Assembly: GCA_032718475.1 (NCBI GenBank) | Contig: JAUCBJ010000474.1 | Span: 1-34,909, forward strand | Length of the DNA stretch: 34,909 nt | Origin: Nemertoderma westbladi | Lineage: Eukaryota; Animalia; Xenacoelomorpha | Reading direction: 5' to 3' | Part shown: positions 8,857 through 34,909 of the stretch, piece by piece | Layout: each line of letters starts with the position of its first letter | Position numbering within the stretch: the stretch's first letter is position 1 | Program-made: the position numbers and the translations under genes | The notes under the pieces: generated by a model | The model's database searches: none | Told to the model about the DNA's origin: nothing | What the model saw: the letters and a program-made list of their open reading frames with translations, nothing else

Positions 8857-8857
8857 C

Positions 8858-10479: not shown

Positions 10480-10519
10480 GTAGGTCGAAACGATTCTAGG
10501 TTACGGTTGTTACGGTTGA

Positions 10520-11095
10520 TACTTAATCAAGCACACGATTTTGCACTGGCTGGTCCTCACGGCGAAAGCAATGTCCTGCAAAGCGGAGGCGATTTTGTTC
10601 TAGTGTCAAGCTTGGGGGAACCAATGAGACACCTCCAACAATGAACACAATGAACCCGGCGTAGCATTCTTGTGAATGTGCCATCCAGAGATTTGGTGTC
10701 CTCAGCAGTTAGAGCCCAGCATGGACTCCCATAGAGGAGTACTGAAGCTACTGCTGCTCTAAATAATCGAACCTTAAGTTTCCGATTAGTTCTCGGTGAC
10801 TATCAAATCCTGGAAAGCCTATTCAAGCCTTTCCCATACGTATTCGAAGGTCCTCATCTGACTTCCGGATCCATGATCCCAGGTAACAGAAGTCGTCCAC
10901 ATGCTCAAGCATACCATCCTTTGAGCTTATGCTCATCCGATCAGAGACTTGCTGAGAACTTTCAAAGTTTACTGTCAAAATTTTGGTCTTTCTGGAGTTA
11001 ATAAAAAGACCAACACTAGAAGCAGCCTGTTCTAATGAGCTGAGGAGCTCTAGTGATTCTGAGAGTACTCCTAAGTCATCAGCAAAGTCTATCTT
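10520..11095 (-). mobile_element. Old, degenerate RTE-clade LINE RT fragment (not in ORF track)
   Basis: Hand translation of the minus strand gives DFADDLGVLS (about 11085), LEHVDDFCYLGSWI (about 10890) and RAAVASVLLYGSPCWALT (about 10740), collinear with the RTE at 32762-33417, with stops and frameshifts. Confidence 0.8.
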
Positions 11096-11269
11096 AATAC
11101 GAACTTAACTTAATAACTATAGTTTAGTTTAATAACTATTACAACAATCCAGTTGAGGATATTGTTGGTATAAATTACATGAATTGCACTAGCACAGAAA
11201 TATTGACAATTAAATTTAACAATCTTTACATTCCTGGCACCGCCAAAATATTGGTAACAACATTGCAGT

Positions 11270-13490
11270 GACCGCTACATTATGTACGACAAAGATATTG
11301 GTTAAACACTTAACCCAACAACAGCTGTGGATCCCGCAGCTCAAACGCTCTCAACAAAAACAAAGCCAAATTGTTGGTTTTATCATCAGTGGAAAGGAAC
11401 TTTGTAAGTATAAAGCGATACTTAAGATTGTTGGATTTTGTGTGAACATAACTGGCAGATATTTGCGCCTTAACTCTACATATAAAGGACACTCTAGTAA
11501 AAAATGGTATTCACTTTCCACCATGTTCAAGTTGCAAACTTTACAGATTCGTTGAGCGCGTGAAGTGCGATACCAACGTCCTACTTCTATTTCGAGTTTA
11601 TGAGAAGTACAAAGAAATCTAGCTAAATTTAAGCGCACTGAGATAAGACTCAGCTTCGAATATTCGTTTCACATAGAAATCACCTTTTGGAGAGTTTTGA
11701 ATAGTAGACCACCAGCTCTGGATATACTGATCTGAATAACTTTTTTTGCCGACAGTAACAGTGTATTTACATTTGAGACCTCCTGCGAGTTCCAAGCCCA
11801 ATTTAACGCCAGCCTATTTACCAAACAACGAATTTTTGATGCCCAGTTAGTTGCACCTTTGGTGATTGTATCATCTAGAAGCATTAAATATGCTTGTTTA
11901 ACTAGCCGGGTATTGGGTAGATTAAGTATTCGTACCCAGAATTTTAGAATAGCAACCATACGGTCAAACACAATTGGATAAGTTGCCGTTTCGCCATGTA
12001 CAAAATCAGGTGTAGACATTTTCAGGGATAAACTTTGTTTGGTGAATCTAAGATATATTTTTTCTGTAACTTTTGAATCCTCAAACCCCCAAACCTCAGC
12101 CCCATATAAGTATTGGTTTAATGAGAGAAGAAAATAAATGATTTTTCAATCCAAAATCTACATGAGTGAAGTAGCTTAGATATCCCCGTATAGAAAAACA
12201 CGCTTTATTTGCCTTATCGGCTAATTGATTCTGGGTGATACTAAAGTAACCAGATGGGAGAACGTTATTCCTAGATATGTATACTCTGACACAATCTTCA
12301 TGGGAGCACCGCTAAAGTCCACTTTTCGTCTGCATACGTAAGGGTCCACCTTTCCTAAAAACTACAATATTTGATTTAGTTCTGTAAGCCCCCAGAAAGT
12401 GCAATAATACTCCAAGATGTCGAGTGACCCCTGGAGGCCTTGAACTGAACTGGATACCAACGCAATATCGTCAGCAAAAAGTAAAACTGAAAGTTCCATA
12501 CCCACACCTAGACCAGTAGAATTTCCCTTAGATAATTATAATTCCAAGTCGCTGATGAACAACGAAAATAATAAAGGAGACATGCACTCACCCTGTCTGA
12601 CCCCAATAAGGCAATCGAAGATCTCAGACACCTCACCGTTCCCTCAAACACGAGATTTCGCTTCATCATACATACTTTTAATGATATCATACAACTTGCC
12701 AGAGAATCCAAGGTTACCTAATTTAATCCATAGAGCACTGCGGTCAATTTTATCAAAAGCTTTTTGCAGGTCAATGAACCCGCAATAGATCTTGGTACCC
12801 TTAGAAGAGCCTATATAATGTTCAATGAGTGCACAAAAAGATGATCCGTGGTCCTGTAGCCGGCCCGAAACGCAGCTTGGGACTCAATCAAAATACCGTT
12901 AACGCTGACACCCATCATGTTAATCTAGCGTTTATTAAAGATGTGATTAATTTGCCTAGCACACTGAGAAGAGAAATACCTCGGTAATTATTTGAGTCAT
13001 TTTTGCTTCCCTTTTGTTTATAATTTGGGATAATTTGAGGGCCATTGCGTGGGAAACATACCAGAATACAGTACTGAGTTAAAAATTAATACTACCACCG
13101 GTGACAGGTTTTCCAACCCTTCGAGAAACATCTCGGGGTCAAGCATGTCCGGCCCAGAAGCCTTACCTCGCTTCATATTGCGCATACCTGCTAAAACCTC
13201 ATCCTCACCAAAAGGCTCAGAAAGGAAGTTTTCAAAAAAATTAAGATTTTGCAGATTAGAATTAAGAATTTTTGCAATATTAAGATCTTGAAAGTTTGAA
13301 GAATTACAATCAGATCCAATGTCGATAAAGTCAGAATTAGTTTCCGAATTTAATTGTCGAAAGTGCGATTCAAAATCGTCTATAGATATGTTATTGGACT
13401 GGGGTTTGCTTCCACCTGCTGATGCCTTTAAACGTTTCCAGAATTGCTTGGTTTCATTTACTTTGGCACGCATCAGCTTATTCGATTGGT
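11270..13490 (-). mobile_element. 5'-truncated, frameshifted non-LTR retrotransposon (RT plus C-terminal CCHC finger; RTEX-like, clade tentative)
   Basis: ORF pieces KASGPDMLDPEMF (13018-13473), LLFADDIAL (about 12470) and SHKLEIEVGRW...RICKVC...ESEYHFLLECPLY (11351-11638). Boundaries approximate. Confidence 0.85.
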
Positions 13491-13593
13491 TAGTTTAAAA
13501 TTGTATTTAAATTCTTAATGAAACATTCCAAAGAATGGGCCCATATGAAGTAGAAATATGCGCTATAAAACATTTCAGAAGGATAAATTTAAA

Positions 13594-13627
<34 letters not shown>

Positions 13628-14368
13628 TGTATAAATAATTATTATTATAATTATAAATAAATATTTATATAAAATTACCAATAAATTTTCGACCAAAAAG
13701 TGAAAACCTGGTATACTTTAGGATGAGGGAAATAAAATGTGTAACTTTATTAACTAAAATTTAATTGGAATTATTGGTCAACATGGAACACGGAAATGTA
13801 GATATGAGTCCCTATAATAATAATGAATATATACTATAATTCTCTCTATAATATACTGTCTACTTGTTGTCTATAATACTGGTTACCATGATTACCCATA
13901 AGGTAGGTGAGCCCAATGACTCTGTAATGCAGGTTGCCATGGTTACCCATAAGGTGCGGCTAATGCTTCCATTCACTTTCTCCCAGAGTTGGATTTAATC
14001 CAGAACTTTTTTTTATTCCATGTCGTAGAAAAGCTACGCCGACAGCAGATAACCGACCAAAAAAAACGACTGCCGTCATAAACGTATAAAGAAGCAGGTC
14101 GCATGTGGCAGGTTGTTATAATCAAAACAATAAACGAGGGTCAAAACCGCAGGCTACAGTTCCATTTTTGTTCAAAATAACCGTTGTCGGTTGTCGGTTG
14201 CAGTATCGTTTAGACTCTAATCACTCCAGATAACCAATGGACATAAAATCTTCTCTTATCATTGTAGTAACTACCCGTATTTCAGTGGAGTTCTTTTTTT
14301 TCACCGTCTCCCCTAATCCATCAACCATTTCTAGAAGGTCGGACGGAGCCCTAGCAAATCAAACCTGG

Positions 14369-14438
14369 CCGAATTTTTAAATTTTCAAATTATTTAGTTA
14401 CCATGTAGCTAAATAATTTTGAAAATTTAAAAATCCGG
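14369..14438. repeat. Imperfect ~70-bp palindrome
   Basis: CCGAATTTTTAAATTTTCAAATTATTTAGTTA / TAGCTAAATAATTTTGAAAATTTAAAAATCCGG are near reverse complements around CCATG. Confidence 0.85.
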
Positions 14439-14566
14439 TGAGGCCGGCAGTGAGAAAATATATCGAACTATCTCCATACCAAATTTCGTAGCTTAAATTC
14501 GTAGCTTAAACCAAATTTACGATTGTAATTTGATATTTTTAAATTTTGTATCATTTTGTTTCTTAG

Positions 14567-14771
14567 ATGATTGCGAGGGAGTTTGCAGCAACGGTGGTGA
14601 ATGCCAGTTCGTATCCATGGGAACGCCCATGTGTATCTGTAAGTCTGGTTACCAAGGCGAGACATGTGACGACGAGGTTGCTATCACCGGTTCCGCCTTG
14701 GCTGGTATTGTCGCCGCTATCCTTAGCGGACTCTGTTTACTCGCCGCCATCGTATACTTCATACACGCCCA
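14567..14771 (+). CDS. Exon 7, EGF-like domain plus transmembrane helix
   Basis: tttcttag|...|GTTAGT, phase 1-2. NDCEGVCSNGGECQFVSMGTPMCICKSGYQGETCDDEVAITGS-ALAGIVAAILSGLCLLAAIVYFI-HA. Confidence 0.93.
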
Positions 14772-15095
14772 GTTAGTGGGATAATATATTTTTTATTTAG
14801 ATTTATTTATTTTATTTATTGCCTGAAAAATCGAAACATATTTTTTGATTACAATTAATTATTATAATTATTATTATGTATGTAGTTCAGGGAGAACTCA
14901 AGAAAACAAAAAAATAATTTTTTGTCACTTTTGTCTTCCCGCTCTACATAATAACACCAGTGACGATAGCGCGTCAGTATTTATAAACTGAAATATTAAA
15001 TTCCTGCTCATTTTATTGGACTTGAGTAGCAAAGTTGCTCAATTGCTTTTCTGTTATACATAGTGTACTTATTTGAAATTATTTTACCTTTTTAG

Positions 15096-15441
15096 TATTG
15101 TTTCAAAGAAGGATAAGGAATTGTCGAAATACAAGAAAATTGTTGAATCTAGAGGTCTACGGGGAAGTGGTGCGCCATCTAGTGGAAAAACCCTGGCAAC
15201 ATATCAAGAAGCAACAAAAGGGTCTTCAGCGCCATCTAGAGAAATCACCTCGGCATACAGTAACATGTCATACGATACCACTGGCGATCGACATGGGGTG
15301 TATATCGTGGAAGATAGTGAGGGGGGATCACCGCGGGATGTGGAGAAAGGGAAGTACAAGATGAACGAGCACTACGAGGATGTACATGTACCGAGTAACG
15401 AGTACAAGTCATCGCCTTACACTGGCAGACATTACTTCCAG
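15096..15441 (+). CDS. Exon 8, cytoplasmic tail
   Basis: ttttag|...|GTTAGT, phase 2-0, joins exon 7 in frame. Basic stop-transfer IVSKKDKELSKYKK, then ...AYSNMSY...NEHYEDV...RHYFQ. Confidence 0.88.
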
Positions 15442-18170
15442 GTTAGTAGATTATTGGACATGAATAGGGGGCAGACACTTACATGTTATTAGATTATTGG
15501 ACATGAATTAATAGGGGGCAGACACTTACATGTTACTAGTAGATTAATGGACATGAATAGGGGGCAGACACTTACATGTTATTAGATTATTGGACATGAA
15601 TTAATAGGGGGCAGACACTTACATGTTACTAGTAGATTAATGGACATTAATAGGGGGCAGACACTTTACATGTTATTATATTATTGGACATGAATTAATA
15701 GGGGGCAGACACTTACATGTTAGTAGTAGATTATTGGACATGAATAGGGGGCAGACACTTCTTCCATGTTAGTATTAGATTATTGGACATGAATTAATAG
15801 GGGGCAGACACTTACATGTTATTAGATTATTGGACATGAATTAATAGGGGGCAGACACTTACATGTTACTAGTAGATTAATGGACATTAATAGGGGGCAG
15901 ACACTTTACATGTTATTATATTATTGGACATGAATTAATAGGGGGCAGACACTTACATGTTACTAGTAGATTAATGGACATTAATAGGGGGCAGACACTT
16001 TACATGTTATTATATTATTGGACATGAATTAATAGGGGGCAGACACTTACATGTTAGTAGTAGATTATTGGACATGAATAGGGGGCAGACACTTCTTCCA
16101 TGTTAGTATTAGATTATTGGACATGAATTAATAGGGGGCAGACACTTACATGTTAGTAGTAGATTATTGGACATGAATAGGGGGCAGACTCTTACATGTT
16201 AGTAGTAGATTATTGGACATGAATAGGGGGCAGACACTTACATGTTATTATATTATTGGACATGAATTAATAGGGGGCAGACACTTACATGTTAGTAGTA
16301 GATTATTGGAAATGAATTAATAGGGGGCAGACACTTACATGTTATTAGATTATTGGACATGAATTAATAGGGGGCAGACACTTACATGTTAGTAGTAGAT
16401 TATTGGACATGAATAGGGGGCAGACACTTACATGTTAGTAGTAGATTATTGGACATGAATAGGGGGCAGACACTTACATGTTATTATATTATTGGACATG
16501 AATTAATAGGGGGCAGACACTTACATGTTAGTAGTAGATTATTGGAAATGAATTAATAGGGGGCAGACACTTACATGTTAGAAGTAGATTATTGGACATG
16601 AATAGGGGGCAGACACTTACATGTTATTAGATTATTGGACATGAATTAATAGGGGGCAGACACTTACATGTTAGTAGTAGATTATTGGACATGAATAGTG
16701 GGCAGACACTTACATGTTATTAGATTATTGGACATGAATTAATAGGGGGCAGACACTTACATGTTACTAGTAGATTAATGGACATTAATAGGGGGCAGAC
16801 ACTTTACATGTTATTATATTATTGGACATGAATTAATAGGGGGCAGACACTTACATGTTACTAGTAGATTAATGGACATTAATAGGGGGCAGACACTTTA
16901 CATGTTATTATATTATTGGACATGAATTAATAGGGGGCAGACACTTACATGTTAGTAGTAGATTATTGGACATGGATAGGGGGCAGACACTTCTTCCATG
17001 TTAGTATTAGATTATTGGACATGAATTAATAGGGGGCAGACACTTACATGTTAGTAGTAGATTATTGGACATGAATAGGGGGCAGACTCTTACATGTTAG
17101 TAGTAGATTATTGGACATGAATAGGGGGCAGACACTTACATGTTATTATATTATTGGACATGAATTAATAGGGGGCAGACACTTACATGTTAGTAGTAGA
17201 TTATTGGAAATGAATTAATAGGGGGCAGACACTTCCATGTTAGTAGTAGATTATTGGACATGAATTAATAGGGGGCAGACATTTACATGATAGTAGTAGA
17301 TTATTGGACATGGATAGGGGGCAGACACTTACATGTTAGTAGTAGATTAATGGACATGAATAGGGGGCAGACACTTACATGTTATTAGATTATTGAACAT
17401 GGATAGGGGGCAGACACTTACATGTAGTAGTATATTATTGGACATGGATAGGGGGCAGACACTTACATGTTATTAGATTATTGGACATGAATTAATAGGG
17501 AGCAGACACTTCCATGTTAGTAGTAGATTATTGGACATGAATAGGGGGCAGACACTTCCATGTTAGTAGTAAATTATTGGACATGAATTAATAGGGGGCA
17601 GACACTTACATGTTAGTAGTAGATTAATGGACATTAATAGGGGGCAGACACTTCCATGTTAGTAGTAGATTATTGGACATGAATAGGGGGCAGACACTTC
17701 CATGTTAGTAGTAAATTATTGGACATGAATTAATAGGGGGCAGACACTTACATGTTAGTAGTAGATTAATGGACATTAATAGGGGGCAGACACTTACATG
17801 TTATTAGATTATTGAACATGAATAGGGGGCAGACACTTACATGTTATTATATTATTGGACATGAATTAATAGGGGGCAGACACTTCCATGTTAGTAGTAG
17901 ATTATTGGACATGAATTAATAGGGGGCAGACATTTACATGATAGTAGTAGATTATTGGACATGGATAGTGGGCAGACACTTACATGTTAGTAGTAGATTA
18001 ATGGACATGAATAGGGGGCAGACACTTACATGTTATTAGATTATTGAACATGAATAGGGGGCAGACACTTACATGTTCTTAGATTATTGAACATGAATTG
18101 GGGGCTCAGACACTTATATATATGTTAGTAAATTATTATTGGACATGAATAATAGGGGTAGACCTTACGT
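15442..18170. repeat. ~43-50-bp minisatellite (roughly 55-60 units) filling almost the whole last intron
   Basis: Unit is about GTTAGTAGTAGATTATTGGACATGAA(TTAA)TAGGGGGCAGACACTTACAT, with block-wise duplications of variants. Confidence 0.97.
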
Positions 18171-18251
18171 AGATAAATAATGATAACCAGAACTAAGGAC
18201 TGTGCAATTTAATTATTTTCACTGCGTTTATATTTATTATATGTCTTTTAG

Positions 18252-18266
18252 GATGCGAGTCTGTGA
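18252..18266 (+). CDS. Probable terminal coding exon (DASL-stop)
   Basis: Strong acceptor (gtcttttag) just after the repeat. In phase 0 it gives GAT GCG AGT CTG TGA, followed by AT-rich UTR-like sequence. Confidence 0.6.
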   Translation, partial: DASL

Positions 18267-19705: not shown

Positions 19706-20102
19706 TACTTTATACTACTCTATAAATACTACCTACTTTATACTACTCTATAAATACTACCTACTTTATACTACTCTATAAATACTACCTACTTTATACT
19801 ACTGTATATAAATACTACCTACTTTATACTACTCTATAAATACTACCTACTTTATACTACTCTATAAATACTACCTACTTTATACTACTCTATAAATACT
19901 ACCTACTTTATACTACTCTATAAATACTACCTACTTTATACTACTGTATAAATACTACCTACTTTATACTACTGCGTAAATACTACCTACTTTATACTAC
20001 TGTATAAATACTACCTACTTTATACTACTGTATAAATACTACCTACTTTATACTACTGCGTAAATACTACCTACTTTATACTACTCTATAAATACTACCT
20101 AC
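19706..20102. repeat. 28-bp minisatellite, about 14 units (array A)
   Basis: Unit TACTTTATACTACT(C/G)TATAAATACTACC. Confidence 0.97.
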
Positions 20103-20118
20103 ACTATTTTTGTACATT

Positions 20119-20395
20119 ATACTACTACTACTACTAGGTCGAGCGAACTCGGACAGTGGAAATGAGATCCTTCCAGGCTTCCCGATTCTCTATAGTTGTC
20201 GCAATTTCGTTTCTCCCAAGTTCAGTATCCCTTTCAAGTTGATCTATATATGTTATGGCCGGTCGCCCACGACTACGCTTTCCATGAGTTGGTTGCCAGA
20301 GAAGTAGATCTGGTATGACCTCGTCTTTACTTCGCCAACAGTGCCCACTGAATCTTAATCTGCGTTCACGGAGGGTGGCTGATACAGGTGATACA
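20119..20395 (-). mobile_element. 3' end of RTE-clade LINE with (TAG)n tail
   Basis: RRLRFSGHCWR...WQPTHGKRSRGRP...NREAW is an RTE-type C-terminus. The stop runs directly into TAGTAGTAG. Confidence 0.88.
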
Positions 20396-20404
20396 GGTTG
20401 ATAC

Positions 20405-20867
20405 GATGATTTAAGCAAGCAAATGTCCAGTGCTGATGTAGGTTGCGTTATTGATGGAACCAGGATTAATCACCTTGGTTACGCTGATGACTTATGTTTA
20501 ATTTCAAACTCTATTTTTGGTTTACAGTACTTAATAGATATATGTGTTACTTACGCAAAAGGTAATTCTATAACTTTCAATATAAAGAAAAGTAAGTGTT
20601 TATATTTGTATCCTAAGGGGTCGACAATTATTTGTCGCCCTAGTGTTTATCTTAACGGCTCTCCTATTGAAGTCGTTGAGAAGTTTAATTATCTTGGCCA
20701 TATTGTACACAGTACTTTAGATGACGACTACGATATCAGGAATCAAACTTGTAAGCTTTATTCTGGGGGTAATTTTTTGATTCGCAAATTCGGTTCATGC
20801 CCTGTCCCCGTTAAAGTTACTTTATTTCGTGCATATTGTACACCGTTATATTGCAATGCTCTTTGGG
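20405..20867 (+). mobile_element. Internal RT fragment of a different non-LTR family, opposite orientation
   Basis: INHLGYADDLCLI...FNIKKSKC...EKFNYLGH...VKVTLFRAYC. No tail and no TSD. Confidence 0.88.
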
Positions 20868-21976
20868 CATGAATTCGGTCTTTGTAGCATTTATATGCAA
20901 TCCAACCTCCTTAGCAGCCCTCTCCACTTTATTTAGTAGAAACTGTGCATCTGCTAGCGTATTAGAGAGCAGGGCGATGTCATCCGCAAAGTCGGTGTCT
21001 GTGACTGTAGTTGCCAGATATCTACTACTTCTGCGTTCTTGAAGTGTGAATCCCAGATCTTCACCCTTTGTGGCCGTCCTCATTGCGTAATCCAGCACAA
21101 TTACAAATAGTAATGGTGCTAATGTGTCACCTTGCAGTACGCCAGCCAGGATTGAGAAAAACTCAGTTTCACCATCTGGTGTGAGTACCTGCGCTTCTGT
21201 GTCACAATATAACAATCCAATGCCAACAACAATTACTTTGGTATTCCATAAGCTCTTAGGATTTCAAGCATTTTACCTCTATGGATGGAGTCGAATGCCT
21301 TCTTGAACTCCACAAAAGTAATGACTGCGGGGAGATTCTTTGACTTAATTCCTTCAATCAGTCTCCGTAGTGCAAGTATCTGAGCTATTGTTGATCTACT
21401 TGGTCGAAATCCGTTTTGGCTCTTACGCAGTAGTTTCTCTATGTGAGGCCTAATCCTATATAGAATCATTTTATTGTATATTTTGGCAGCTACCACAAGC
21501 AGACAGATCCCACGATAGTTTGTTGGTATGCCGAGGTCTCCTTTCTTGGGGAGAGGCTTTAGTTGACCTTTAGTCCAAATTGGTGGTGGCTTTTCCCCTT
21601 TTAACACCCGGTTGCAAACATTCAATAATGGTCTGTTTAGCACTCCGGTTTTCCATACCTCCGCTGGGATTTCATCTAATCCACTCGCTTTATTATTGGA
21701 CATGCTTTTAATGCTTCTTTGGAGTTCGGCAGGTGTGAAGTCCCCTGTTTCTATAGGTAGTGTCTTGTCATATATTTTCCTCGATGTTTGGTGGCTGCCC
21801 AAGCAAGTTGCTGAAGTGATTTTTCCACTTCCGAACAAGTTCTTCAGGACTATCGGCTTTGAGGCGCCCCTTTGCACAACTTTTCCGACCAGATACCTCA
21901 TTTACAGTTTGCCATGTAAGTCTTCTTGATTGTTGCTGTATGTGAGCAGTTGTAATTGCTTCAGTTTTATCCTGTA
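20868..21976 (-). mobile_element. RTE LINE RT region, duplicate copy 1 (frameshifted); continues at 24512-24602
   Basis: KASGLDEIPAE, NYRGICLL, QNGFR, GVLQGDTLAP, DFADDIALL. Matches 33070-34178 at offset 12202. Confidence 0.95.
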
Positions 21977-23242
21977 CGAGAAAGGCATTTCCTAAAGGAA
22001 ATGCAACCACGAAGCTAAGGAAAATTAAACAAACGGCCACACTTTGGTTCGTTGCTTAGCCTCATTAAGTAGCAATTGTCAATAATTAACTTCTATTCTC
22101 ATGGAAACTAGAGTTCTCTGGAACTGTTGCTTTAACCTTTGAAAAAAGTTCAGTAGAGATTGTGATTCAGATAACACATATACTGAGTTTCAGAAAATAT
22201 TGTAGTTTATGTCCCAATTACCAATTTTCTATCAAAATGCATCTGTTTGCAGTGGTTGTCATGGAAACTGGAAAATAGAACAATGTAATTCGGATGCAGA
22301 ATAAGTCATATAGTGGGGGTAGGGGTTAGTCCCAAGTCATAATACTATTAACTTGTGCTTCAAATTATCATTTTATATATTTTAACATCTGTTTAGACTT
22401 GTTGCTATGGTAACTGTATTTTCTAATTAACCTCAAACGGCTTGGATATGGATCTTATAGATGAGTTGCAAAACCCCAAGTTTATATATATTACAGTTTT
22501 GCTACAAATAGAGTTATCAATATAGATTTGAATGATATAGAGTTTAATAAACTACAGTTACCATGGTAACTAAATTTCTGGAATAATTTAAGTTTCACTA
22601 AAAGTTCCAACTAGTGGTCCAGATAACACATACCCAGTTTTGTAAAATTTTATCGTGAAGTCTATGTCCAAATGAATAAGTTTTGAATAAAAACATCTGT
22701 TTTCAGCGGTTGTCATGGTAATTGAAAAATAGAACAATGTAATTCAGATGCAGAATAAGTTATATAGTGGGGGTAGGGGTTGGTCCCAAGTCATAACACC
22801 TTGCCCTTAGGCCTCAAATTAACATTTTATAAATTTTAACATCTGTTTATCCCGGTTGCCAAGGTAACTGGATTTTCTATTTAGCCTCAATCGGATCTGC
22901 TATGGACCTTATAGTTGTGTTGCGAAACCCCAAGTTTATATCTATTATAGTTTTCCTACAAATAGAGTTATAAATATTGACTTGAAATACATAGACTTTT
23001 TTTGAAGTCCGTTGCCATGGAAACCAGATTTTTCCTGGATATGAGACCCGGCCCAAAAGATGCGCCTTGTCGAGTAGTATATACATGCAAAATTTCAGGG
23101 TACTTTTAAAGGCTAGTTTTTTCCCCGACCAAAAAACCCCAAATCTGCCCCATACAAGTAAAATAGCCCACTATGAATAGACCATCTCAGCTAAGGAAAA
23201 TCTTTCTTAGCGAAAGTAGTTGATTTTCCTTAGCTTCGTGTA
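21977..23242 (-). mobile_element. Non-autonomous Helitron-like element copy 1 (CTCG end, 1266 bp)
   Basis: Minus-strand 3' end is hairpin GCATTTCCTTTAGGAAATGC then CTTTCTCG. Empty site at 34178/34179. The 5' terminus reads TACACG instead of TCCACG. Confidence 0.85.
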
Positions 23243-24511
23243 CTAGAAAGGCATTTCCTAAAGGAAATGCAACCACGAAGCTAAGGAAAATTAAACAAAG
23301 GGCCATAATTTGGTTTGTTGCTTAGCCTAGTTTAGTAGCATTTGCCAATAAATAACTTATATTCCCATGGATACTAGAATTCTCTGGAACTGTTGGTTTT
23401 ACCTTTGAAAAAAGATTCAGTCCAGATTGTGGTTCAGATAACACATACCAAGTTTCAGAAAATATTGTAGTTTATGTCCAAATTACCGATTTTCTATCAT
23501 AATGCATCTGTTTGCAGTGGTTGTCATGGAAACTGAAAAATAGAACAATGTAATTCGGATGCAGAATAAGTCATATAATGGGGGTAGGTCTTGGTCCCAA
23601 GTCATAATACTATTAACTTGTGTTTCAAATTATCATTTTAGAAATTTTAACATCTGTTTAGTCTTGTTGCTATGGTAATTGGATTGTGTAATTAACCTCG
23701 AATGGATTGTATATGGACCTTACAGATGACTTGCAAAACCCCAAATTTAAATTTATTACATTATTTTGCTGCAAATAGAGTATTGAATTTAGACTTGAAT
23801 GATATCGACTTTAATAAACTCCAGTTACCATGGTAACAAGATATTTATGGAATGTTTTAGGTTTTACTAAAAGTTTCAACTAGTGGTCCAGATAACACAT
23901 ATCCAATTTCGTAAAATTTTATCGCGAAGTCTATGTCCAAATGAGTTATTTTTGTATAAAAACATCTGTTTTCAGCGGTTGTCATGGTAACTGCAAAATT
24001 AAACAATGAAATTCGGACGCAGAATAAGTCATATAGTGGGGGTAGGGGTTGGTCCCAAGACATAACACATTAACCTTAGGCTTCAAATTAACATTTTATA
24101 AATTTTAACATCTGTTTAGCCCGGTTGCCAAGGTAACTGGAATTTCTATTTAACCTCAATCGGCTCTGCTATGGACCTTATAGTTGAGTTGAGAAATCCC
24201 AAGTTTATATGTATTATAGTTTTCCTACAAATAGAGTTATAAATATTGACTTGAAATACATAGACTTTTTTCTAAGTCCGTTGCCATGGAAACCAGATTT
24301 TTCCTGAATATGAGACCCATCCCACACGACGCGCCTCGATGAGTAGTACATACATGCAAAATTTCAGGGTACTTTTAAAGGCTAGTTTTTTCCCCGACCA
24401 AAAAAAACCAAATCTGCCTCATACAAGTAAAATAGCCCACTATGAATAGACCATCTCAGCTAAGGAAAATCTTTCTTAGCGAAAGTAGTTGATTTTCCTT
24501 AGCTTCGTGGA
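23243..24511 (-). mobile_element. Helitron-like element copy 2 (CTAG end, 1269 bp)
   Basis: 5' TCCACG...hairpin-CTAG 3' on minus strand. Abuts copy 1. No TSD. Confidence 0.85.
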
Positions 24512-24602
24512 TGTACTTTTCGTGGCTGATGTTGTAGGCCAATTTAAGATCGTCCTTAGCTTTCTCAACCTTGTTAATGTTTTCAGTTGTTGGTTGTTGT
24601 TG
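24512..24602 (-). mobile_element. 5'-most remnant of RTE copy 1
   Basis: Identical by eye to 34179-34269. Confidence 0.9.
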
Positions 24603-24655
24603 TATAAATACTACCTACTTTATACTACTCTATAAATACTACCTACTTTATACTA

Positions 24656-25901
24656 CTAGAAAGGCATTTCCTAAAGGAAATGCAACCACGAAGCTAAGGA
24701 AAATTAAACACTCTTTGACTCATCAGTTCATTGATTTACCGAGTTAAAAGAACTCCCGGTATTGCCAAGGTAACTGGACTTTTCTAGAAATGCTGAGTTT
24801 TACATTAAGATCTAGTTTGTGGTTCCAGGTGATACATCGACTTCAAGGAAGCTTCATTGAGTAGTTTATGTGCAAAATTAATTATTAATTTGTTAAAAAG
24901 TCTGTTTGCAGTGGTTGTCAAGGTAACTGGCAAATAGAACAACGTAGATTGGATGCAGAATAAGTGATATTATGGTGGTAGGGGTTGGTCCCAAGTCATA
25001 ATGCCTTTAACTTGTGTTTCTAATTATAATTTTTTAAATTATAACATCTGTTTAGCCTGGTTACCAAGGTAACTGGATTTTCTAATTAACCACAATTGGC
25101 TCCTCTAAGGACCTTCCTTATAGTTGAGTTGGGAAACCCAATATTTATATCTAATACAGTTTTCCTACAAACAAGAGTTAAAAATATAGACTTGAATGAT
25201 ATTGACTTTAATAAGCTCCAGTTACCATGGTAACTATATATTTCTGGAATGTTTTGAGTTTCACTAAAAGTTCCAACTAGTGATCCAGTAACACATACCC
25301 ATTTTCATAAAATTTTATAATGAAGTCTATGTCCAAATGAGTAATTTTTGCATAGAAACATCTGTTTTCATCGGTTGTCATGGTAACTGCAAAATTAAAC
25401 AATGAAATTCGGACGCAGAATAAGATATATAGTGGGGGTAGGGGTTGGTCCCAAGACATAACACCTTAACCTTAGGCTTCAAATTAACTTTTGCTTGCTT
25501 GCTTTTTAGCCCAGTTGCCAAGGTAACTGGATTTTCTATTTAACCTCAATCGGCTCTGCTATGGACCTTATAGTTGAGTTGCGAAACCCCAAGTTTATAT
25601 CTATTATAATTTTCCTACAAATAGAGTTATAAATATTGACTTGAAATACATAGACTTTTTTCTAAGTCCGTTACCATGGAAACCAGATTTTTCCTGGATA
25701 TGAGACCCATCCCACACGACGCGCCTTGATGAGTAGTATATACATGCAAAATTTTAGGGTACTTTTAAAGGCTAGTTTTTTCACCGGTCAAAAAACACTA
25801 AATCTGCTCCATACAAGTAAAATAGCCCACTATGAATAGACCATATCAGCTAAGGAAAATCTTTCTTAGCGAAAGTAGTTGATTTTCCTTAGCTTCGTGG
25901 A
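24656..25901 (-). mobile_element. Helitron-like element copy 3 (CTAG end, 1246 bp, divergent subfamily)
   Basis: Same termini. Segment 24710-24900 differs strongly from the other copies. Confidence 0.85.
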
Positions 25902-25915
25902 CTGTATAAATACTA

Positions 25916-27182
25916 CGAGAAAGGCATTTCCTAAAGGAAATGCAACCACGAAGCTAAGGAAAATTAAACAAACGGCCACACTTTGGTTCGTTGCTTAGCC
26001 TCGCTTAGTAGCAATTGTCAATAATTAACTTCTATTCCCATGGAAACTAGAGTTCTCTGGAACTGTTGCTTTAACCTTTGAAAAAAAATTCAGTACAGAT
26101 TGTGGTTCAGATAACACATATACTGAGTTTCAGAAAATATTGTAGTTTATGTCCAGATTACCGATTTTCTATCAAATTGCATCTGTTTGCAGTGGTTGTC
26201 ATGGAAACTGAAAAATAGAACAATGTAATTCGGATGCAGAATAAGTCATATTGTGGGGGTAGGGGTTAGTCCCAAGTCATAATACTATTAACTTGTGCTT
26301 CAAATTATCATTTTATAAATTTTAACATCTGTTTAGACTTGTTGCTATGGTAACTGTATTTTCTAATTAACCTCAAACGGCTTGGATATGGATCTTATAG
26401 ATGAGTTGCAAAACCCCAAGTTTATATATATTACAGTTTTGCTACAAATAGAGTTATCAATATAGATTTGAATGATATAGAGTTTAATAAACTACAGTTA
26501 CCATGGTAACTAAATTTCTGGAATAATTTAAGTTTCACTAAAAGTTCCAACTCGTGGTCCAGATAACACATACCCAGTTTTGTAAAATTTTATCGTGAAG
26601 TCTATGTCCAAATGAATAAGTTTTGAATAAAAACATCTGTTTTCAGCGGTTGTCATGGTAACTGAAAAATAGAACAATGTAATTCGGATGCAGAATAAGT
26701 TATATAGTGGGGGTAGGGGTTGGTCCCAAGTCATAACACCTTAACCTTAGGCTTCAAATTAACATTTTATAAATTTTAACATCTGTCTAGCCCGGTTGCC
26801 AAGGTAACTGGATTTTCTATTTAACCTCAATCGGCTCTGCTATGGACCTTATAGTTGTGTTGAGAAACCCCAAGTTTATATCTATTATAGTTTTCCTACA
26901 AATAGAGTTTTAAATATTGACTTGAAATACATAGACTTTTTTCTAAGTCCGTTGCCATGGAAACCAGATTTTTCCTGGATATGAGACCCAGCCCAAAAGA
27001 TGCGCCTCGACGAGTAGTATATACATGCAAAATTTCAGGGTACTTTTAAAGGCTAGTTTTTTCACCTATCAAAAAAAACCAAATCTGCCTCACACAAGTA
27101 AAATAGCCCACTATGAATAGACCATCTCAGCTAAGGAAAATCTTTCTTAGCGAAAGTAGTTGATTTTCCTTAGCTTCGTGGA
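25916..27182 (-). mobile_element. Helitron-like element copy 4 (CTCG end, 1267 bp)
   Basis: Same termini. Identical by eye to copy 7. Confidence 0.85.
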
Positions 27183-27270
27183 CCTACTTTATACTACTGT
27201 ATAAATAATACCTACTTTATACTACTGTATAAATACTACCTACTTTATACTACTGTATATATACTACCTA

Positions 27271-28533
27271 CTAGAAAGGCATTTCCTAAAGGAAATGCAA
27301 CCACGAAGCTAAGGAAAATTAAACAAACGGCCACAATTTGGTTCGTTGCTTAGACTAGTTTAGTAGCATTTGCCAATAAATAACTTCTATTCCCATGGAA
27401 ACTAGAGTTCTCTGGAACTGTTGGTTTTACCTTTGAAAAAAGATTCAGTCCAGATTGTTTTTCAGATAACACATCGAGTTTCAGAAAATATTGTAGTTTA
27501 TGTCCAAATTACAGATTTTCTATCAAAATGCATCTGTTTGCAGTGGTTGTCATGGAAACTGAAAAATAGAACAATGTAATTCGGATGCAGAATAAGTCAT
27601 ATAGTGGGGGTAGGTGTTGGTCCCAAGTCATAATACTATTAAATTGTGCTTCAAATTATCATTTTATTAATTTTAACATCTGTTTACTCTTGTTGCTATG
27701 GTAAATGGATTTTCTAATTAACTTCGAACGGCTTGTATATGGACCTTATAGATGAGTTACAAAACCCCAAGTTTATATATATTACAGTTTTGCTAGAAAT
27801 AGAGTTATCAATATAGACTTGAATGATATAGAGTTTAATAAACTACAGTTACCATGGTAACTAAATTTCTGGAATGATTTAAGTTTCACTAAAAGTTCCA
27901 ACTAGTGGTGCAGATAACACATACCCAGTTTTGTAAAATTTTATCGCGAAGTCTATGTCCAAATGAATAATTTTTGTATAAAAACATCTGTTTTCGGCTG
28001 TTGTCATGGTAACTGAAAAATAGAACAATGTAATTCGGATGCAGAATAAGTTATATAGTGGGGGTAGGGGTTGGTCTCAAGTCATAACACCTTGCCCTTA
28101 GGCCTCAAATTATCATTTTATAAATTTTAACATCTGTTTATCCCGGTTGCCAACGTAACTGGATTTTCTATTTAGCCTCAATCGGATCTGCTATGGACCT
28201 TATAGTTGTGTTGCAAAACCCCAAGTTTAAATCTATTATAGTTTTCCTACAAATAGAGTTATAAATATTGACTTGAAATACATAGACTTTTTTTGAAGTC
28301 CGTTGCCATGGAAACCAGATTTTTCCTGGATATGAGACCCGGCCCAAAAGATGCGCCTCGCCGAGTAGTATATACATGCAAAATTTCAGGGTACTTTTAA
28401 AGGCTAGTTTTTTCGCCTATCAAAAAACCCCAAATCTGCCTCACACAAGTAAAATAGCCCACTATGAATAGACCATCTCAGCTAAGGAAAATCTTTCTTA
28501 GCGAAAGTAGTTGATTTTCCTTAGCTTCGTGGA
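27271..28533 (-). mobile_element. Helitron-like element copy 5 (CTAG end, 1263 bp)
   Basis: Same termini. Identical by eye to copy 6. Confidence 0.85.
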
Positions 28534-28548
28534 CTTTATACTACTGTA

Positions 28549-29811
28549 CTAGAAAGGCATTTCCTAAAGGAAATGCAACCACGAAGCTAAGGAAAATTAA
28601 ACAAACGGCCACAATTTGGTTCGTTGCTTAGACTAGTTTAGTAGCATTTGCCAATAAATAACTTCTATTCCCATGGAAACTAGAGTTCTCTGGAACTGTT
28701 GGTTTTACCTTTGAAAAAAGATTCAGTCCAGATTGTTTTTCAGATAACACATCGAGTTTCAGAAAATATTGTAGTTTATGTCCAAATTACAGATTTTCTA
28801 TCAAAATGCATCTGTTTGCAGTGGTTGTCATGGAAACTGAAAAATAGAACAATGTAATTCGGATGCAGAATAAGTCATATAGTGGGGGTAGGTGTTGGTC
28901 CCAAGTCATAATACTATTAAATTGTGCTTCAAATTATCATTTTATTAATTTTAACATCTGTTTACTCTTGTTGCTATGGTAAATGGATTTTCTAATTAAC
29001 TTCGAACGGCTTGTATATGGACCTTATAGATGAGTTACAAAACCCCAAGTTTATATATATTACAGTTTTGCTAGAAATAGAGTTATCAATATAGACTTGA
29101 ATGATATAGAGTTTAATAAACTACAGTTACCATGGTAACTAAATTTCTGGAATGATTTAAGTTTCACTAAAAGTTCCAACTAGTGGTGCAGATAACACAT
29201 ACCCAGTTTTGTAAAATTTTATCGCGAAGTCTATGTCCAAATGAATAATTTTTGTATAAAAACATCTGTTTTCGGCTGTTGTCATGGTAACTGAAAAATA
29301 GAACAATGTAATTCGGATGCAGAATAAGTTATATAGTGGGGGTAGGGGTTGGTCTCAAGTCATAACACCTTGCCCTTAGGCCTCAAATTATCATTTTATA
29401 AATTTTAACATCTGTTTATCCCGGTTGCCAACGTAACTGGATTTTCTATTTAGCCTCAATCGGATCTGCTATGGACCTTATAGTTGTGTTGCAAAACCCC
29501 AAGTTTAAATCTATTATAGTTTTCCTACAAATAGAGTTATAAATATTGACTTGAAATACATAGACTTTTTTTGAAGTCCGTTGCCATGGAAACCAGATTT
29601 TTCCTGGATATGAGACCCGGCCCAAAAGATGCGCCTCGCCGAGTAGTATATACATGCAAAATTTCAGGGTACTTTTAAAGGCTAGTTTTTTCGCCTATCA
29701 AAAAACCCCAAATCTGCCTCACACAAGTAAAATAGCCCACTATGAATAGACCATCTCAGCTAAGGAAAATCTTTCTTAGCGAAAGTAGTTGATTTTCCTT
29801 AGCTTCGTGGA
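28549..29811 (-). mobile_element. Helitron-like element copy 6 (CTAG end, 1263 bp)
   Basis: Same termini. Lies 15 bp from copy 5. Confidence 0.85.
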
Positions 29812-29983
29812 TATAAATACTACCTACTTTATACTACTGTATATAAATACTACCTACTTTATACTACTGCGTACATACTGCCTACTTTATACTACTGTAT
29901 AAATACTACCTACTTTATACTACTCTATAAATACTACCTACTTTATACTACTGTATAATTACTACCTACTTTATACTACTGTA

Positions 29984-31250
29984 CGAGAAAGGCATTTCCT
30001 AAAGGAAATGCAACCACGAAGCTAAGGAAAATTAAACAAACGGCCACACTTTGGTTCGTTGCTTAGCCTCGCTTAGTAGCAATTGTCAATAATTAACTTC
30101 TATTCCCATGGAAACTAGAGTTCTCTGGAACTGTTGCTTTAACCTTTGAAAAAAAATTCAGTACAGATTGTGGTTCAGATAACACATATACTGAGTTTCA
30201 GAAAATATTGTAGTTTATGTCCAGATTACCGATTTTCTATCAAATTGCATCTGTTTGCAGTGGTTGTCATGGAAACTGAAAAATAGAACAATGTAATTCG
30301 GATGCAGAATAAGTCATATTGTGGGGGTAGGGGTTAGTCCCAAGTCATAATACTATTAACTTGTGCTTCAAATTATCATTTTATAAATTTTAACATCTGT
30401 TTAGACTTGTTGCTATGGTAACTGTATTTTCTAATTAACCTCAAACGGCTTGGATATGGATCTTATAGATGAGTTGCAAAACCCCAAGTTTATATATATT
30501 ACAGTTTTGCTACAAATAGAGTTATCAATATAGATTTGAATGATATAGAGTTTAATAAACTACAGTTACCATGGTAACTAAATTTCTGGAATAATTTAAG
30601 TTTCACTAAAAGTTCCAACTCGTGGTCCAGATAACACATACCCAGTTTTGTAAAATTTTATCGTGAAGTCTATGTCCAAATGAATAAGTTTTGAATAAAA
30701 ACATCTGTTTTCAGCGGTTGTCATGGTAACTGAAAAATAGAACAATGTAATTCGGATGCAGAATAAGTTATATAGTGGGGGTAGGGGTTGGTCCCAAGTC
30801 ATAACACCTTAACCTTAGGCTTCAAATTAACATTTTATAAATTTTAACATCTGTCTAGCCCGGTTGCCAAGGTAACTGGATTTTCTATTTAACCTCAATC
30901 GGCTCTGCTATGGACCTTATAGTTGTGTTGAGAAACCCCAAGTTTATATCTATTATAGTTTTCCTACAAATAGAGTTTTAAATATTGACTTGAAATACAT
31001 AGACTTTTTTCTAAGTCCGTTGCCATGGAAACCAGATTTTTCCTGGATATGAGACCCAGCCCAAAAGATGCGCCTCGACGAGTAGTATATACATGCAAAA
31101 TTTCAGGGTACTTTTAAAGGCTAGTTTTTTCACCTATCAAAAAAAACCAAATCTGCCTCACACAAGTAAAATAGCCCACTATGAATAGACCATCTCAGCT
31201 AAGGAAAATCTTTCTTAGCGAAAGTAGTTGATTTTCCTTAGCTTCGTGGA
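29984..31250 (-). mobile_element. Helitron-like element copy 7 (CTCG end, 1267 bp)
   Basis: Same termini. Identical by eye to copy 4. Confidence 0.85.
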
Positions 31251-31410
31251 TAAATACTACCTACTTTATACTACTCTATAAATACTACCTACTTTATGCT
31301 ACTCTATAAATACTACCTACTTTATACTACTCTATAAATACTACCTACTTTATACTACTGCGTAAATACTGCCTACTTTATACTACTTTATAAATACTAC
31401 CTACTTTATA

Positions 31411-32659
31411 CTAGAAAGGCATTTCCTAAAGGAAATGCAACCACGAAGCTAAGGAAAATTAAACAAAGGGCCACAATTTGGTTTGTTGCTTAGCCTAGTT
31501 TAGTAGCATTTGCCAATAATTAACTTCTATTCCCATGGAAACTAGAGTTCTCTGGAACTGTTGGTTTTACCTTTGAAAAAAAGATTCAGTCCAGATTGTG
31601 GTTTAGATAACACATACCAAGTTTCAGAAAATATTGTAGTTTAGGTCCAAATTACCGATTTTCTATCAAAATGCATCTGTTTGCAGTGGTTGTCATGGAA
31701 ACTGAAAAATAGAACAATGTAATTCGGATGCAGAATAAGTCATATAGTGGGGGTAGGTGTTGGTCCCAAGTCATAATACTATTAAATTGTGCTTCAAATT
31801 ATCATTTTATAAATTTTAACATCTGTTTAGTCTTATTGCTATGGTAACTGGATTTTCTAATTAACCTCGAACGGCTTGGATATGGACCTTATGAGTTGCA
31901 AAACCCCACGTTTATATATATTACAGTTCTGCTACAAATGGAGTTATGAATATAGACTTGAATAAACATCAGTTACCATGGTAACTATATATTTCTGGAA
32001 TGTTTTCAGTTTCACTAAAAGTTCCAACTAATGGTACAGATAACACATTCCCAGTTTCGTAACATTTTATCGCGAAGTCTATGTCCAAATGAGTAATTTT
32101 TATATAAAAACATCTGTTTTCAGCGGTTGTCATGGTAACTGCAAAATATAACAATGAAATTCGGACGCAGAATAAGTAATATAGTGGGGGTAGGGGTTGG
32201 TCCCAAGTCATAACACCTTAACCTTAGGCTTCAAATTAACATTTTATAAATTTTAACATCTGTTTAGCCCGGTTGCCAAGGTAACTGGATTTTCTATTTA
32301 ACCTCAATCGGCTCTGCTATGGACCTTATAGTTGAGTTGAGAAACCCCAAGTTTATATCTATTATAGTTTTCCTACAAATAGAGTTATAAATATTGACTT
32401 TAAATACATAGACGTTTTTCTATGTTCGTTACCATGGAAACCAGATTTTTCCTGGATATGAGACCCAGCCCAAAAGATGCGCCTCGACGAGTAGTATATA
32501 CATGCAAAAATTCAGGGTACTTTTAAAGGCTAGTTTTTTCACCGGTCAAAAAACACTAAATCTGCTCCATACAAGTAAAATAGCCCACTATGAATAGACC
32601 ATCTCAGCTAAGGAAAATCTTTCTTAGCGAAAGTAGTTGATTTTCCTTAGCTTCGTGGA
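31411..32659 (-). mobile_element. Helitron-like element copy 8 (CTAG end, 1249 bp)
   Basis: Same termini. Empty site at 34771/34772. Confidence 0.85.
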
Positions 32660-32761
32660 CTACTCTATAAATACTACCTACTTTATACTACTGTATAAAT
32701 ACTATCTACTTTATACTACTGTATACTACTGTATAAATACTGCCTACTTTATACTACTGTA

Positions 32762-34269
32762 CTTAGTAGTCTTGTGTAGCAACCATGAATTCGTTGTTCA
32801 AGTGATTTAGTCAGTGTCCAGGTCTCACCCCCGTATAAAAATACACTTTCCACTGTGGCTCGAAAGAACTTAGGTGCCTGGTGCAGGTGCCTGGAGAGAT
32901 CTGATTTCCAGATGGTATCCATTTTTGATAGAGCTACCCAAGCCTTTGCTTTCCTAACTTCTATGTCCTTTTTGCTACTCTCTATCCATGATCCAAGGTA
33001 CTGGAAGTCATCGACCTTCCTTAGTTGATTATTATCAATGGTTGTCAAGTTCCCATCAACATTAAAGGTCATGAATTCGGTCTTTGTAGCATTTATATGC
33101 AATCCAACCTCCTTAGCAGCCCTCTCCACTTTATTTAGTAGAAACTGTGCATCTGCTAGCGTATTAGAGAGCAGGGCGATGTCATCCGCAAAGTCGGTGT
33201 CTGTGACTGTAGTTGCCAGATATCTACTACTTCTGCGTTCTTGAAGTGTGAATCCCAGATCTTCACCCTTTGTGGCCGTCCTCATTGCGTAATCCAGCAC
33301 AATTACAAATAGTAATGGTGCTAATGTGTCACCTTGCAGTACGCCAGCCAGGATTGAGAAAAACTCAGTTTCACCATCTGGTGTGAGTACCTGCGCTTCT
33401 GTGTCACAATATAACAATCCAATGCCAACAACAATTACTTTGGTATTCCATAAGCTCTTAGGATTTCAAGCATTTTACCTCTATGGATGGAGTCGAATGC
33501 CTTCTTGAACTCCACAAAAGTAATGACTGCGGGGAGATTCTTTGACTTAATTCCTTCAATCAGTCTCCGTAGTGCAAGTATCTGAGCTATTGTTGATCTA
33601 CTTGGTCGAAATCCGTTTTGGCTCTTACGCAGTAGTTTCTCTATGTGAGGCCTAATCCTATATAGAATCATTTTATTGTATATTTTGGCAGCTACCACAA
33701 GCAGACAGATCCCACGATAGTTTGTTGGTATGCCGAGGTCTCCTTTCTTGGGGAGAGGCTTTAGTTGACCTTTAGTCCAAATTGGTGGTGGCTTTTCCCC
33801 TTTTAACATCCGGTTGCAAACATTCAATAATGGTCTGTTTAGCACTCCGGTTTTCCATACCTCCGCTGGGATTTCATCTAATCCACTCGCTTTATTATTG
33901 GACATGCTTTTAATGCTTCTTTGGAGTTCGGCAGGTGTGAAGTCCCCTGTTTCTATAGGTAGTGTCTTGTCATATATTTTCCTCGATGTTTGGTGGCTGC
34001 CCAAGCAAGTTGCTGAAGTGATTTTTCCACTTCCCAACAAGTTCTTCAGGACTATCGGCTTTGAGGCGCCCCTTTGCACAACTTTTCCGACCAGATACCT
34101 CATTTACAGTTTGCCATGTAAGTCTTCTTGATTGTTGCTGTATGTGAGCAGTTGTAATTGCTTCAGTTTTATCCTGTATGTACTTTTCGTGGCTGATGTT
34201 GTAGGCCAATTTAAGATCGTCCTTAGCTTTCTCAACCTTGTTAATGTTTTCAGTTGTTGGTTGTTGTTG
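32762..34269 (-). mobile_element. RTE LINE RT region, duplicate copy 2 (uninterrupted, same frameshifts)
   Basis: ORFs 33435-34103 and 32749-33417 (DFADD, DDFQYLGSWI, FLYGGETWTLT). Truncated at both ends against the minisatellite. Confidence 0.95.
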
Positions 34270-34909
34270 TATAAATACTACCTACTTTATACTACTCTAT
34301 AAATACTACCTACTTTATACTACTGTATAAATACTACCTACTTTATACTACTGTATAAATAATACCTACTTTATACTACTGTATAAATACTACCTACTTT
34401 ATACTACTGTATATATACTACCTACTTTATACTACTGTATATAAATACTACCTACTTTATACTACTGTATATAAATACTACCTACTTTATACTACTGCGT
34501 ACATACTGCCTACTTTATACTACTGTATAAATACTACCTACTTTATACTACTCTATAAATACTACCTACTTTATACTACTGTATAATTACTACCTACTTT
34601 ATACTACTGTATAAATACTACCTACTTTATACTACTCTATAAATACTACCTACTTTATGCTACTCTATAAATACTACCTACTTTATACTACTCTATAAAT
34701 ACTACCTACTTTATACTACTGCGTAAATACTGCCTACTTTATACTACTTTATAAATACTACCTACTTTATACTACTCTATAAATACTACCTACTTTATAC
34801 TACTGTATAAATACTATCTACTTTATACTACTGTATACTACTGTATAAATACTGCCTACTTTATACTACTGTATAAATACTGCCTACTTTATACTACTTT
34901 ATAAATACT
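34270..34909. repeat. 28-bp minisatellite array C (empty twin of array B), runs off window
   Basis: Same unit and same order of variant units as array B. Confidence 0.97.

Follow-up and report, generated by a model that had tools for sequence, protein, structure and literature searches.

X-box-like palindromes phased through the core of a putative Helentron-type element in Nemertoderma westbladi

The stretch of DNA described here, called the window throughout, is the whole of contig JAUCBJ010000474.1 of Nemertoderma westbladi (34,909 nucleotides), and across positions 21976-32658 it holds eight copies of one repeated element, 1,246-1,269 bp long and oriented alike in 8/8 cases. Every copy carries seven palindrome-like 14-mer boxes, making 56 in the cluster, in agreement with the initial annotation of the locus, which had counted about seven per copy and about 55 in all; the coordinates it gave for individual 14-mers and the box-to-box spacings of the first copy (160/146/156/152/146/156 bp) were exact. 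That annotation likened the box to the X-box bound by RFX proteins, which in animals regulate cilia and sperm genes, and supposed that the element recruits RFX to open its own chromatin. Published work is cited below by PubMed Central (PMC) number, in each case for those parts of the text or data that bear on the point at issue.

All eight copies lie on the minus strand. Copy c1 (21976-23241, 1,266 bp) is inserted at T^A in a fragment of a long interspersed nuclear element (LINE) and has its boxes at 22095, 22255, 22401, 22557, 22709, 22855 and 23011; c2 (23242-24510; boxes at 23361, 23520, 23666, 23824, 23978, 24124 and 24280) stands head to tail with it. The remaining copies are c3 (24655-25900; boxes at 24761, 24914, 25060, 25221, 25374, 25514 and 25670), c4 (25915-27181; boxes at 26034, 26195, 26341, 26497, 26649, 26795 and 26951), c5 (27270-28532; boxes at 27389, 27546, 27692, 27848, 28000, 28146 and 28302), c6 (28548-29810; boxes at 28667, 28824, 28970, 29126, 29278, 29424 and 29580), c7 (29983-31249; boxes at 30102, 30263, 30409, 30565, 30717, 30863 and 31019) and c8 (31410-32658; boxes at 31529, 31689, 31835, 31972, 32126, 32272 and 32428). 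The eight copies comprise six distinct sequences, c4 being identical to c7 and c5 to c6, and c3 is the divergent one (84-85% identity to the others), its first half deriving from another subfamily.

Read on the minus strand, with the c1 coordinates as the example, the element consists of a 5' subterminal inverted repeat (subTIR, 23220-23240), a short internal inverted repeat 19 bases inward (23189-23202, complementary to 23222-23235 within the 5' subTIR), the core array (22095-23024), a 3' subTIR (22008-22028), a terminal hairpin (21985-22004) and an end that reads CT(A/C)G-T. The two subTIRs pair as 21-nt arms that are 95% complementary, and the hairpin, which has an 8-bp stem and a 4-nt loop and lies 9 bases from the element end, is the same in 8/8 copies, its stem being invariant. 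The distance of 19 nt between the internal repeat and the 5' subTIR falls within the range of 3-22 bp given for DINE-1 and Cg_HINE. Neither a duplication nor a change of the target was found; cutting out the eight copies restores an empty duplicate of the target base for base at 7/7 sites. On this anatomy we consider it very probable that the repeat is a non-autonomous rolling-circle element of about 1.25 kb of the Helentron type (HINE). The TT insertion that is the general target preference of HINE and HLE2 elements (PMC11417382, PMC4067079) was not found, all sites being T^A (R^TA when the 5' T is taken as part of the element), and the element is accordingly filed as HINE-type by anatomy, with a variant target. 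A 5'-flank microsatellite, which is common and not universal in HINEs, was likewise not seen, the program TRF reporting none inside the element. The ends can also be read in the manner of a canonical Helitron (HLE1), which starts with 5' TC and finishes with a 3' hairpin plus CTRR, as TC...CTAG in five copies and CTCG in three; however, the preceding base is A at only 3/7 sites, where HLE1 inserts between A and T, and subTIRs are present, whereas HLE1 is without terminal inverted repeats.

The layout matches that of HLE2 elements (PMC11417382), and it resembles Cg_HINE of the Pacific oyster and HINE/DINE-1 elements in general (PMC7492417, PMC4067079) in having a 5' subTIR with a complementary repeat nearby, a 3' subTIR followed by a hairpin, a central satellite-like array of 140-180-bp units, no coding sequence and no target-site change. 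It differs from them in the lack of a visible microsatellite, in its longer subTIRs (19-21 nt) and in its TA rather than TT target. Furthermore, the X-box-like 14-mer opens every core unit in the window, whereas the oyster cores are mostly without it.

The c1 core consists of units A1 (160 bp), B1 (146), C1 (156), A2 (152), B2 (146) and C2 (156), each opened by its box, followed by a seventh box. The boxes are thus phased and seven to a copy, as the initial annotation had it, but they do not head seven independent units: the block A-B-C, of three units, occurs twice and is followed by the last box, so that the core amounts to 2⅓ rounds of a trimer of ~150-bp units. The spacers of like units are 65% (A1/A2), 89% (B1/B2) and 80% (C1/C2) identical, whereas those of unlike types are only 42-54% alike, near the shuffle level (z at most 2.4 in 11 of the 12 cross-type pairs among the six full units, and 4.4 in the remaining pair). 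Because boxes of unlike types nevertheless share 10-13 of their 14 bases, the box is the most recognisable part of the unit, as the initial annotation had remarked. In DTC84 of the clam Donax trunculus (PMC3879986), too, core variants of ~160 bp are arrayed in order and have a conserved palindrome where the units join; the DTC84 palindrome is another 12-mer for which no factor was proposed in the account cited, whereas that of the window agrees with the RFX consensus and is met again in unrelated families. In c3, the boxes at 24761, 24914 and 25060 all have A at position 8 and T at position 11, though they head three unrelated unit types; these shared changes may reflect conversion limited to the box or parallel change.

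The array is more than would be expected by chance. Fifty-one of the 56 boxes fit the published consensus RYYNYY-N2-RRNRAC on one strand or the other (PMC4168999, where the general form has N(1-3)). Copy 4 contains six sites within two mismatches of GTTRCCATGGYAAC, compared with a mean of 0.01 and a maximum of 1 in 500 dinucleotide shuffles, and seven sites of the relaxed consensus against a shuffle mean of 0.56 and maximum of 3; the entire rest of the window (24,226 bases) has three such sites. The left half of the box is degenerate and the right half nearly fixed, a pattern that has been described for second X-boxes (PMC4168999), and a strong right half beside a degenerate left one is a feature shared with the X-box of the literature consulted (PMC4168999, PMC5838959, PMC12311785). 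The arrangement is different, the known functional X-boxes of those papers being single or paired promoter sites near transcription starts and not phased arrays in transposons.

We compared the variation of boxes and spacers across the copies, the check on which the initial annotation had staked its reading. Among the six distinct copies, variable columns were fewer in boxes (15/98) than in spacers (241/833; Fisher p 0.004, the columns not being independent), and the difference persisted when c3 was left out (7/98 versus 140/833, p 0.012). When the seven 14-mers were shifted as a set to 120 non-overlapping offsets, none varied as little as the boxes; without c3, 1/120 tied with them. Among the best 40 of 169 variant rows from the runs, 0/29 in-array positions fell in a box, a weak result in the same direction (p ~0.04). 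These comparisons argue strongly that the box is under purifying constraint, and we regard this as very probably correct.

The constraint is unevenly distributed along the box. Positions 2, 3, 7, 10 and 13 never vary among the 56 boxes, while minor alleles are most frequent at positions 11 (22/56), 4 (18/56) and 5 (17/56). When the contacts listed for the RFX1-DNA crystal (PMC12311785) were mapped, with an offset of one, on the window's perfect palindrome, they fell on box positions 1-3, 5 and 7-10 and their symmetry mates. The only positions free of listed contacts are 4 and 11, and these are the two most variable in the window.

We searched other sequence collections for two boxes 139-169 bp apart. 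The phased pair was estimated to occur in about 9,700 metagenome stretches, of which 120 (L001-L120) were examined; they belong to 36 assemblies by name prefix, probably often with related hosts. By comparison, 13 stretches were found in 596 gigabases of prokaryote genomes, and viral contigs gave no match to a slightly narrower pattern. Four of the 13 prokaryote records (L126, L129, L131 and L132), all of marine-animal symbionts, hold AT-rich arrays or units of the phased-box kind, which are probably host-DNA contamination of the symbiont assemblies; L131 and L132, whose record bears the title of a symbiont assembly from a Bathymodiolus mussel, are probably host DNA. Two bacterial repeats (L124, 499-817, and L123, 547-776) show a box-like 14-mer every 51 or 27 bases and are probably coding repeats unrelated to the element. 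Given the element anatomy seen among the metagenome loci and the near absence of the pattern from prokaryote genomes, we infer that these loci are of animal origin; reverse-transcriptase proteins compared with the 120 loci gave no match. One locus, L042, holds two complete HINEs with hairpin, subTIRs, internal inverted repeat, microsatellite and an ordered array of box-bearing units, and its termini are wholly unlike those of the window family, yet the box is the same. The two lie in tandem in an AAT microsatellite (780-2740), and several relatives are also found in TAA-rich flanks, like the TA-rich target in the window. A generic scan for Helitron ends in the 120 loci found few (3 loci); one family was mapped, with 14 ends in 13 loci.

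About 295 units from these loci were grouped into 71 subclusters, and the 14 subfamilies with at least three units (S0-S13) cover 253 of them. The box is present in 14/14 subfamily consensuses, the spacers of which are 41-82% alike. No homology was detected between window spacers and metagenome spacers by blastn, pairwise comparison (z at most 4.0) or profile search, which lends no support to a common descent of the window and metagenome families. The occurrence of the same box in HINE families with different termini speaks for a reader that is conserved and supplied by the host, rather than a transposase specific to one family, and since the box fits the RFX consensus, an RFX protein is proposed as that reader, an identification that we think somewhat more probable than not on the present sequences.

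The related loci also allowed the decay of boxes to be compared with that of spacers. An initial test, in which boxes and spacers had changed about equally (11.3% and 11.6%), was rejected as biased, since mutated boxes are over-represented once every pattern-matched one is dropped. We therefore used only slots beyond the first matching pair (137/158 present) or before the last (135/153 present). In these two sets, 115/135 and 107/131 boxes fit RYYNYY-N(1-3)-RRNRAC, and boxes had changed from the consensus at 5.5% and 6.9% of sites, compared with 11.6% and 12.0% in non-CpG spacer; the base-matched ratio of box to spacer change was 0.45 and 0.51. The deficit was greatest for inherited changes, those shared with near neighbours (30 against 118.7 expected, and 36 against 118.2). 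Private changes were less reduced (ratio 0.63 and 0.70), and sparse sampling leaves some inherited change among them. RFX proteins can act as repressors. One could envisage that RFX binds the boxes and that the outcome is silencing, tolerance or a decoy, bound copies being less harmful or escaping removal, or the array titrating RFX. All of the motif evidence for RFX applies equally to such an outcome, and the reduced private change fits some selection on resident copies; however, inherited variants are far more strongly constrained than private ones, which speaks for a gain during replication, and we consider silencing or decoy improbable.

The spacing of the boxes is ordered as well. In the related units it clusters at 143-146, 153-155 and 164 bp, and in 13 aligned subfamily consensuses, otherwise almost gap-free (S11 was left out as unalignable), the indels longer than 1 bp measure 9, 10, 10, 11 and 20 bp, which are whole helical turns; at least four of these are independent, and they stand beside four 1-bp events. 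The B and C units of the window (146 and 156 bp) fit the same grid. A 10-bp AA/TT period within units reached p ≤0.05 in 3/14 related consensuses and in 0/6 window units. The near-nucleosomal spacing that the initial annotation had invoked is generic when taken alone, the oyster HINE cores being mostly of 140-180-bp units without the box (in the published core data cited above), and only 3/48 box-to-box gaps leave 147 bp free.

Whole-turn spacing would suit any repeated nucleoprotein assembly, and the box could be a constrained cis-acting part read by something other than RFX, such as the partner Rep/Helicase of the autonomous Helentron or an accessory protein that it supplies, or a different host protein whose site is similar, the likeness of the box to the X-box being incidental. 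The concentration of constraint on inherited variants is what any transposition signal would show. Moreover, the clam DTC84 cores end their units in a different conserved 12-nt palindrome (PMC3879986), and conserved boxes without a known ligand are described in HINE cores (PMC3879986, PMC7492417). Three observations count against such a reader: the same box occurs in families with wholly different subTIRs and hairpins, the termini by which HINE families are defined in the sources cited; the consensus of the related families is exactly the RFX site published in PMC4168999; and many HINEs are without the box. We therefore judge a reader other than RFX to be unlikely.

It is also conceivable that no protein reads the box, and that boxes are kept alike by pairing with one another in a single-stranded intermediate or by short-patch conversion, serving as junctions at which units are added or swapped. 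Being palindromic, any two boxes can pair, and boxes 3 and 4, flanks included, make up an inverted repeat of 22 nt that pairs with a probability of 0.95 and 0.66 in the two folded strands. The A at position 8 and T at position 11 shared by the first three boxes of c3, the reduction of private changes and the proposal that the DTC84 palindrome is a hotspot of array change (PMC3879986) would all be in keeping with pairing or conversion. On the other hand, boxes 3 and 4 are the only pair stable in both strands, positions 4 and 11 form Watson-Crick pairs in 9/56 boxes with no sign of compensation, and single boxes hardly fold; hairpins of one box have energies of 0 to -1.4 kcal/mol, and the single-box hairpin was rejected as a function on that account. 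Conversion homogenises within a family; it would neither keep one 14-mer constant across unrelated families nor account for indels of whole helical turns. A box without a protein reader thus seems quite unlikely, a little more so than one read by a protein other than RFX.

What we propose instead is that the box is a site for a host RFX-family protein, kept because it helps the element to spread rather than because it serves a neighbouring gene; on the sequence evidence this proposal is about evenly balanced between right and wrong. A dimeric, winged-helix RFX protein would bind the boxes in double-stranded DNA; as the boxes mostly leave less than 147 bp free, nucleosomes on the body of the element would have to compete with the bound protein or would be loosened by it. 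The termini would stay open to Rep/Helicase supplied in trans, and opening would matter only in cells that transmit insertions. In this connection, human RFX1-4 form a testis expression cluster (PMC5838959), and RFX5 destabilises nucleosomes (PMC12311785). That the benefit of the box lies in the opening of chromatin for mobilisation is a possible reading, somewhat short of probable.

Several points weigh against this proposal. Position 5 of the box is listed as contacted by RFX1, yet it varies nearly as much (17/56) as positions 4 and 11; the contact list of PMC12311785 does not tell contacts with bases from contacts with the backbone, and all 56 boxes go back to seven unit types. The box positions that change most in the related family are just those with G or C. 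A reduction is also seen in private changes (0.63-0.70), so that the constraint is not confined to replicating copies, or else conversion contributes. The related loci were retrieved by the motif, and box-less relatives are for this reason not countable among them. With respect to spacing, the A units of the window (152-161 bp) lie off the 146/156 grid, and length steps of 10 bp could arise from slippage in A/T-tract repeats. Nucleosome binding has been reported as particular to RFX5 and not to the ciliary RFX factors. Finally, most oyster HINE cores lack the box (64 occurrences of GTTGCC in a file of 3.3 million characters, among the matches listed in the published material), which argues that HINE mobility in general does not depend on it.

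Helitrons are known to have spread MSL sites. The initial annotation had also cited the spread of HSF-1 sites by Helitrons in Caenorhabditis, which is established (PMC6927752): clusters of heat-shock elements were distributed there by rolling-circle transposition as dense sites for a single factor, and a benefit for mobilisation was suggested. In Caenorhabditis, binding and effects on genes were measured, whereas the window element is known from its sequence and has one site per ~150-bp HINE core unit. The nearest prior remark on RFX that we met is that rfx2 was among six factors whose chromatin immunoprecipitation signal was enriched at the 5' end of one Xenopus Helitron; no account of X-box arrays in Helitron cores was found in the literature searched, which did not include most subscription journals or Repbase reports. 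What is described here is a HINE in which an RFX-type box appears as the conserved part of the core and recurs across unrelated families. Conserved boxes in satellite-like Helentron cores have been described for years without a known ligand, and in this case the box seems to be a recognisable host-factor site, the conservation of which can be measured both within and across families and the spacing of which, in related families, shifts by whole helical turns. The finding bears on the way in which rolling-circle elements that encode nothing reach germline chromatin, and on whether the ciliary gene network receives RFX sites from them on a genome-wide scale. In its widest form, which we consider rather unlikely, the proposal would be that a widespread lineage of animal Helentron core repeats has long kept helically phased X-boxes, borrowing host RFX to clear nucleosomes in the male germline and scattering tens of thousands of RFX sites through invertebrate genomes, with titration of RFX or seeding of ciliary enhancers as possible consequences.

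The target of the insertions supports a recent origin of the cluster. Its first part (20873-24590, minus strand) is a decayed LINE reverse-transcriptase fragment interrupted by c1 and c2, and its second (24591-32761) is a TA-rich minisatellite of 28-bp repeats interrupted by c3-c8. An element-free duplicate of the LINE fragment and the minisatellite lies at 33075-34875, with the empty c1/c2 site at 34177/34178, and its frames match Pfam RVT_1. When the eight copies were removed, 20873-32760 differed from 33075-~34875 by two mismatches in the first 1,800 columns, with 1,809/1,822 columns identical over the whole alignment. There are seven insertion sites, all precise and all at TA. The near-identical duplicate beside the cluster argues that the insertions are probably very recent, and the simplest reading of the sequence is eight such insertions into one duplicate. 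Both LINE copies share variants that are absent from the family majority in the runs, which fits local duplication. The filled junction was not among the listed loose ends of contigs aligned to the empty LINE copy (1,515 further ends exist beyond those listed). All eight insertions, of six sequence types, lie in one orientation within about 620 bp of target in the filled block, and none lies in the empty block; this distribution points to a burst of insertion into a single exposed strand, to hopping over short distances (c4 being equal to c7 and c5 to c6) or to two alleles assembled in tandem.

Upstream of the cluster lies the only host gene seen in the window (2554-18266), which has cysteine-rich exons of ephrin-receptor-like type, an exon for EGF and transmembrane parts, and a cytoplasmic tail. 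Its stop codon, inferred with the splicing at ~18264-18266, is 3.7 kb before the first element, where the initial annotation had put about 4 kb, and the cluster begins at least 3.7 kb past it (a gene beyond the window end is possible). The initial annotation had taken the cluster for an enhancer-like block, and one could suppose that the 56 boxes were selected by the host as an enhancer of this gene. The density of sites at that distance and the co-option of Helitron-borne HSF-1 sites (PMC6927752) are in favour of such a role. Against it, the adjoining element-free duplicate, with its two differences in 1,800, makes the cluster probably too young for an adapted enhancer. Helitron-borne MSL sites have likewise been co-opted, which counts for the enhancer. 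The element family is nonetheless a high-copy one, with 5,727 contig records in run X1, 1,522 in X3 and 70 in X5 of organism A (records, not copy numbers). In addition, most functional X-boxes in the data of PMC5838959 are no more than a few hundred bases away from a transcription start, whereas the cluster is on the 3' side of the only host gene of the window and not near its start. The interpretation given in the initial annotation is partly supported, but its enhancer role for the neighbouring gene is unlikely, and a block selected by the host for that purpose is very improbable indeed.

Between the gene and the filled block, a third array of the 28-bp minisatellite, without insertions, occupies 19706-20102; 20103-20400 is the 3' end of the LINE, and 20402-20872 is an opposite-strand fragment of a different LINE. 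Large tandem repeats, of 5, 39, 43 and 46/93 bp, fill the introns of the host gene, and several begin directly at splice donors. Box-like 14-mers also occur in these introns: two stand 51 bp apart in a short direct repeat (13882-13946), one is a lone site at 6101, and another forms the centre of a long, imperfect, AT-rich palindrome at 14371-14436.

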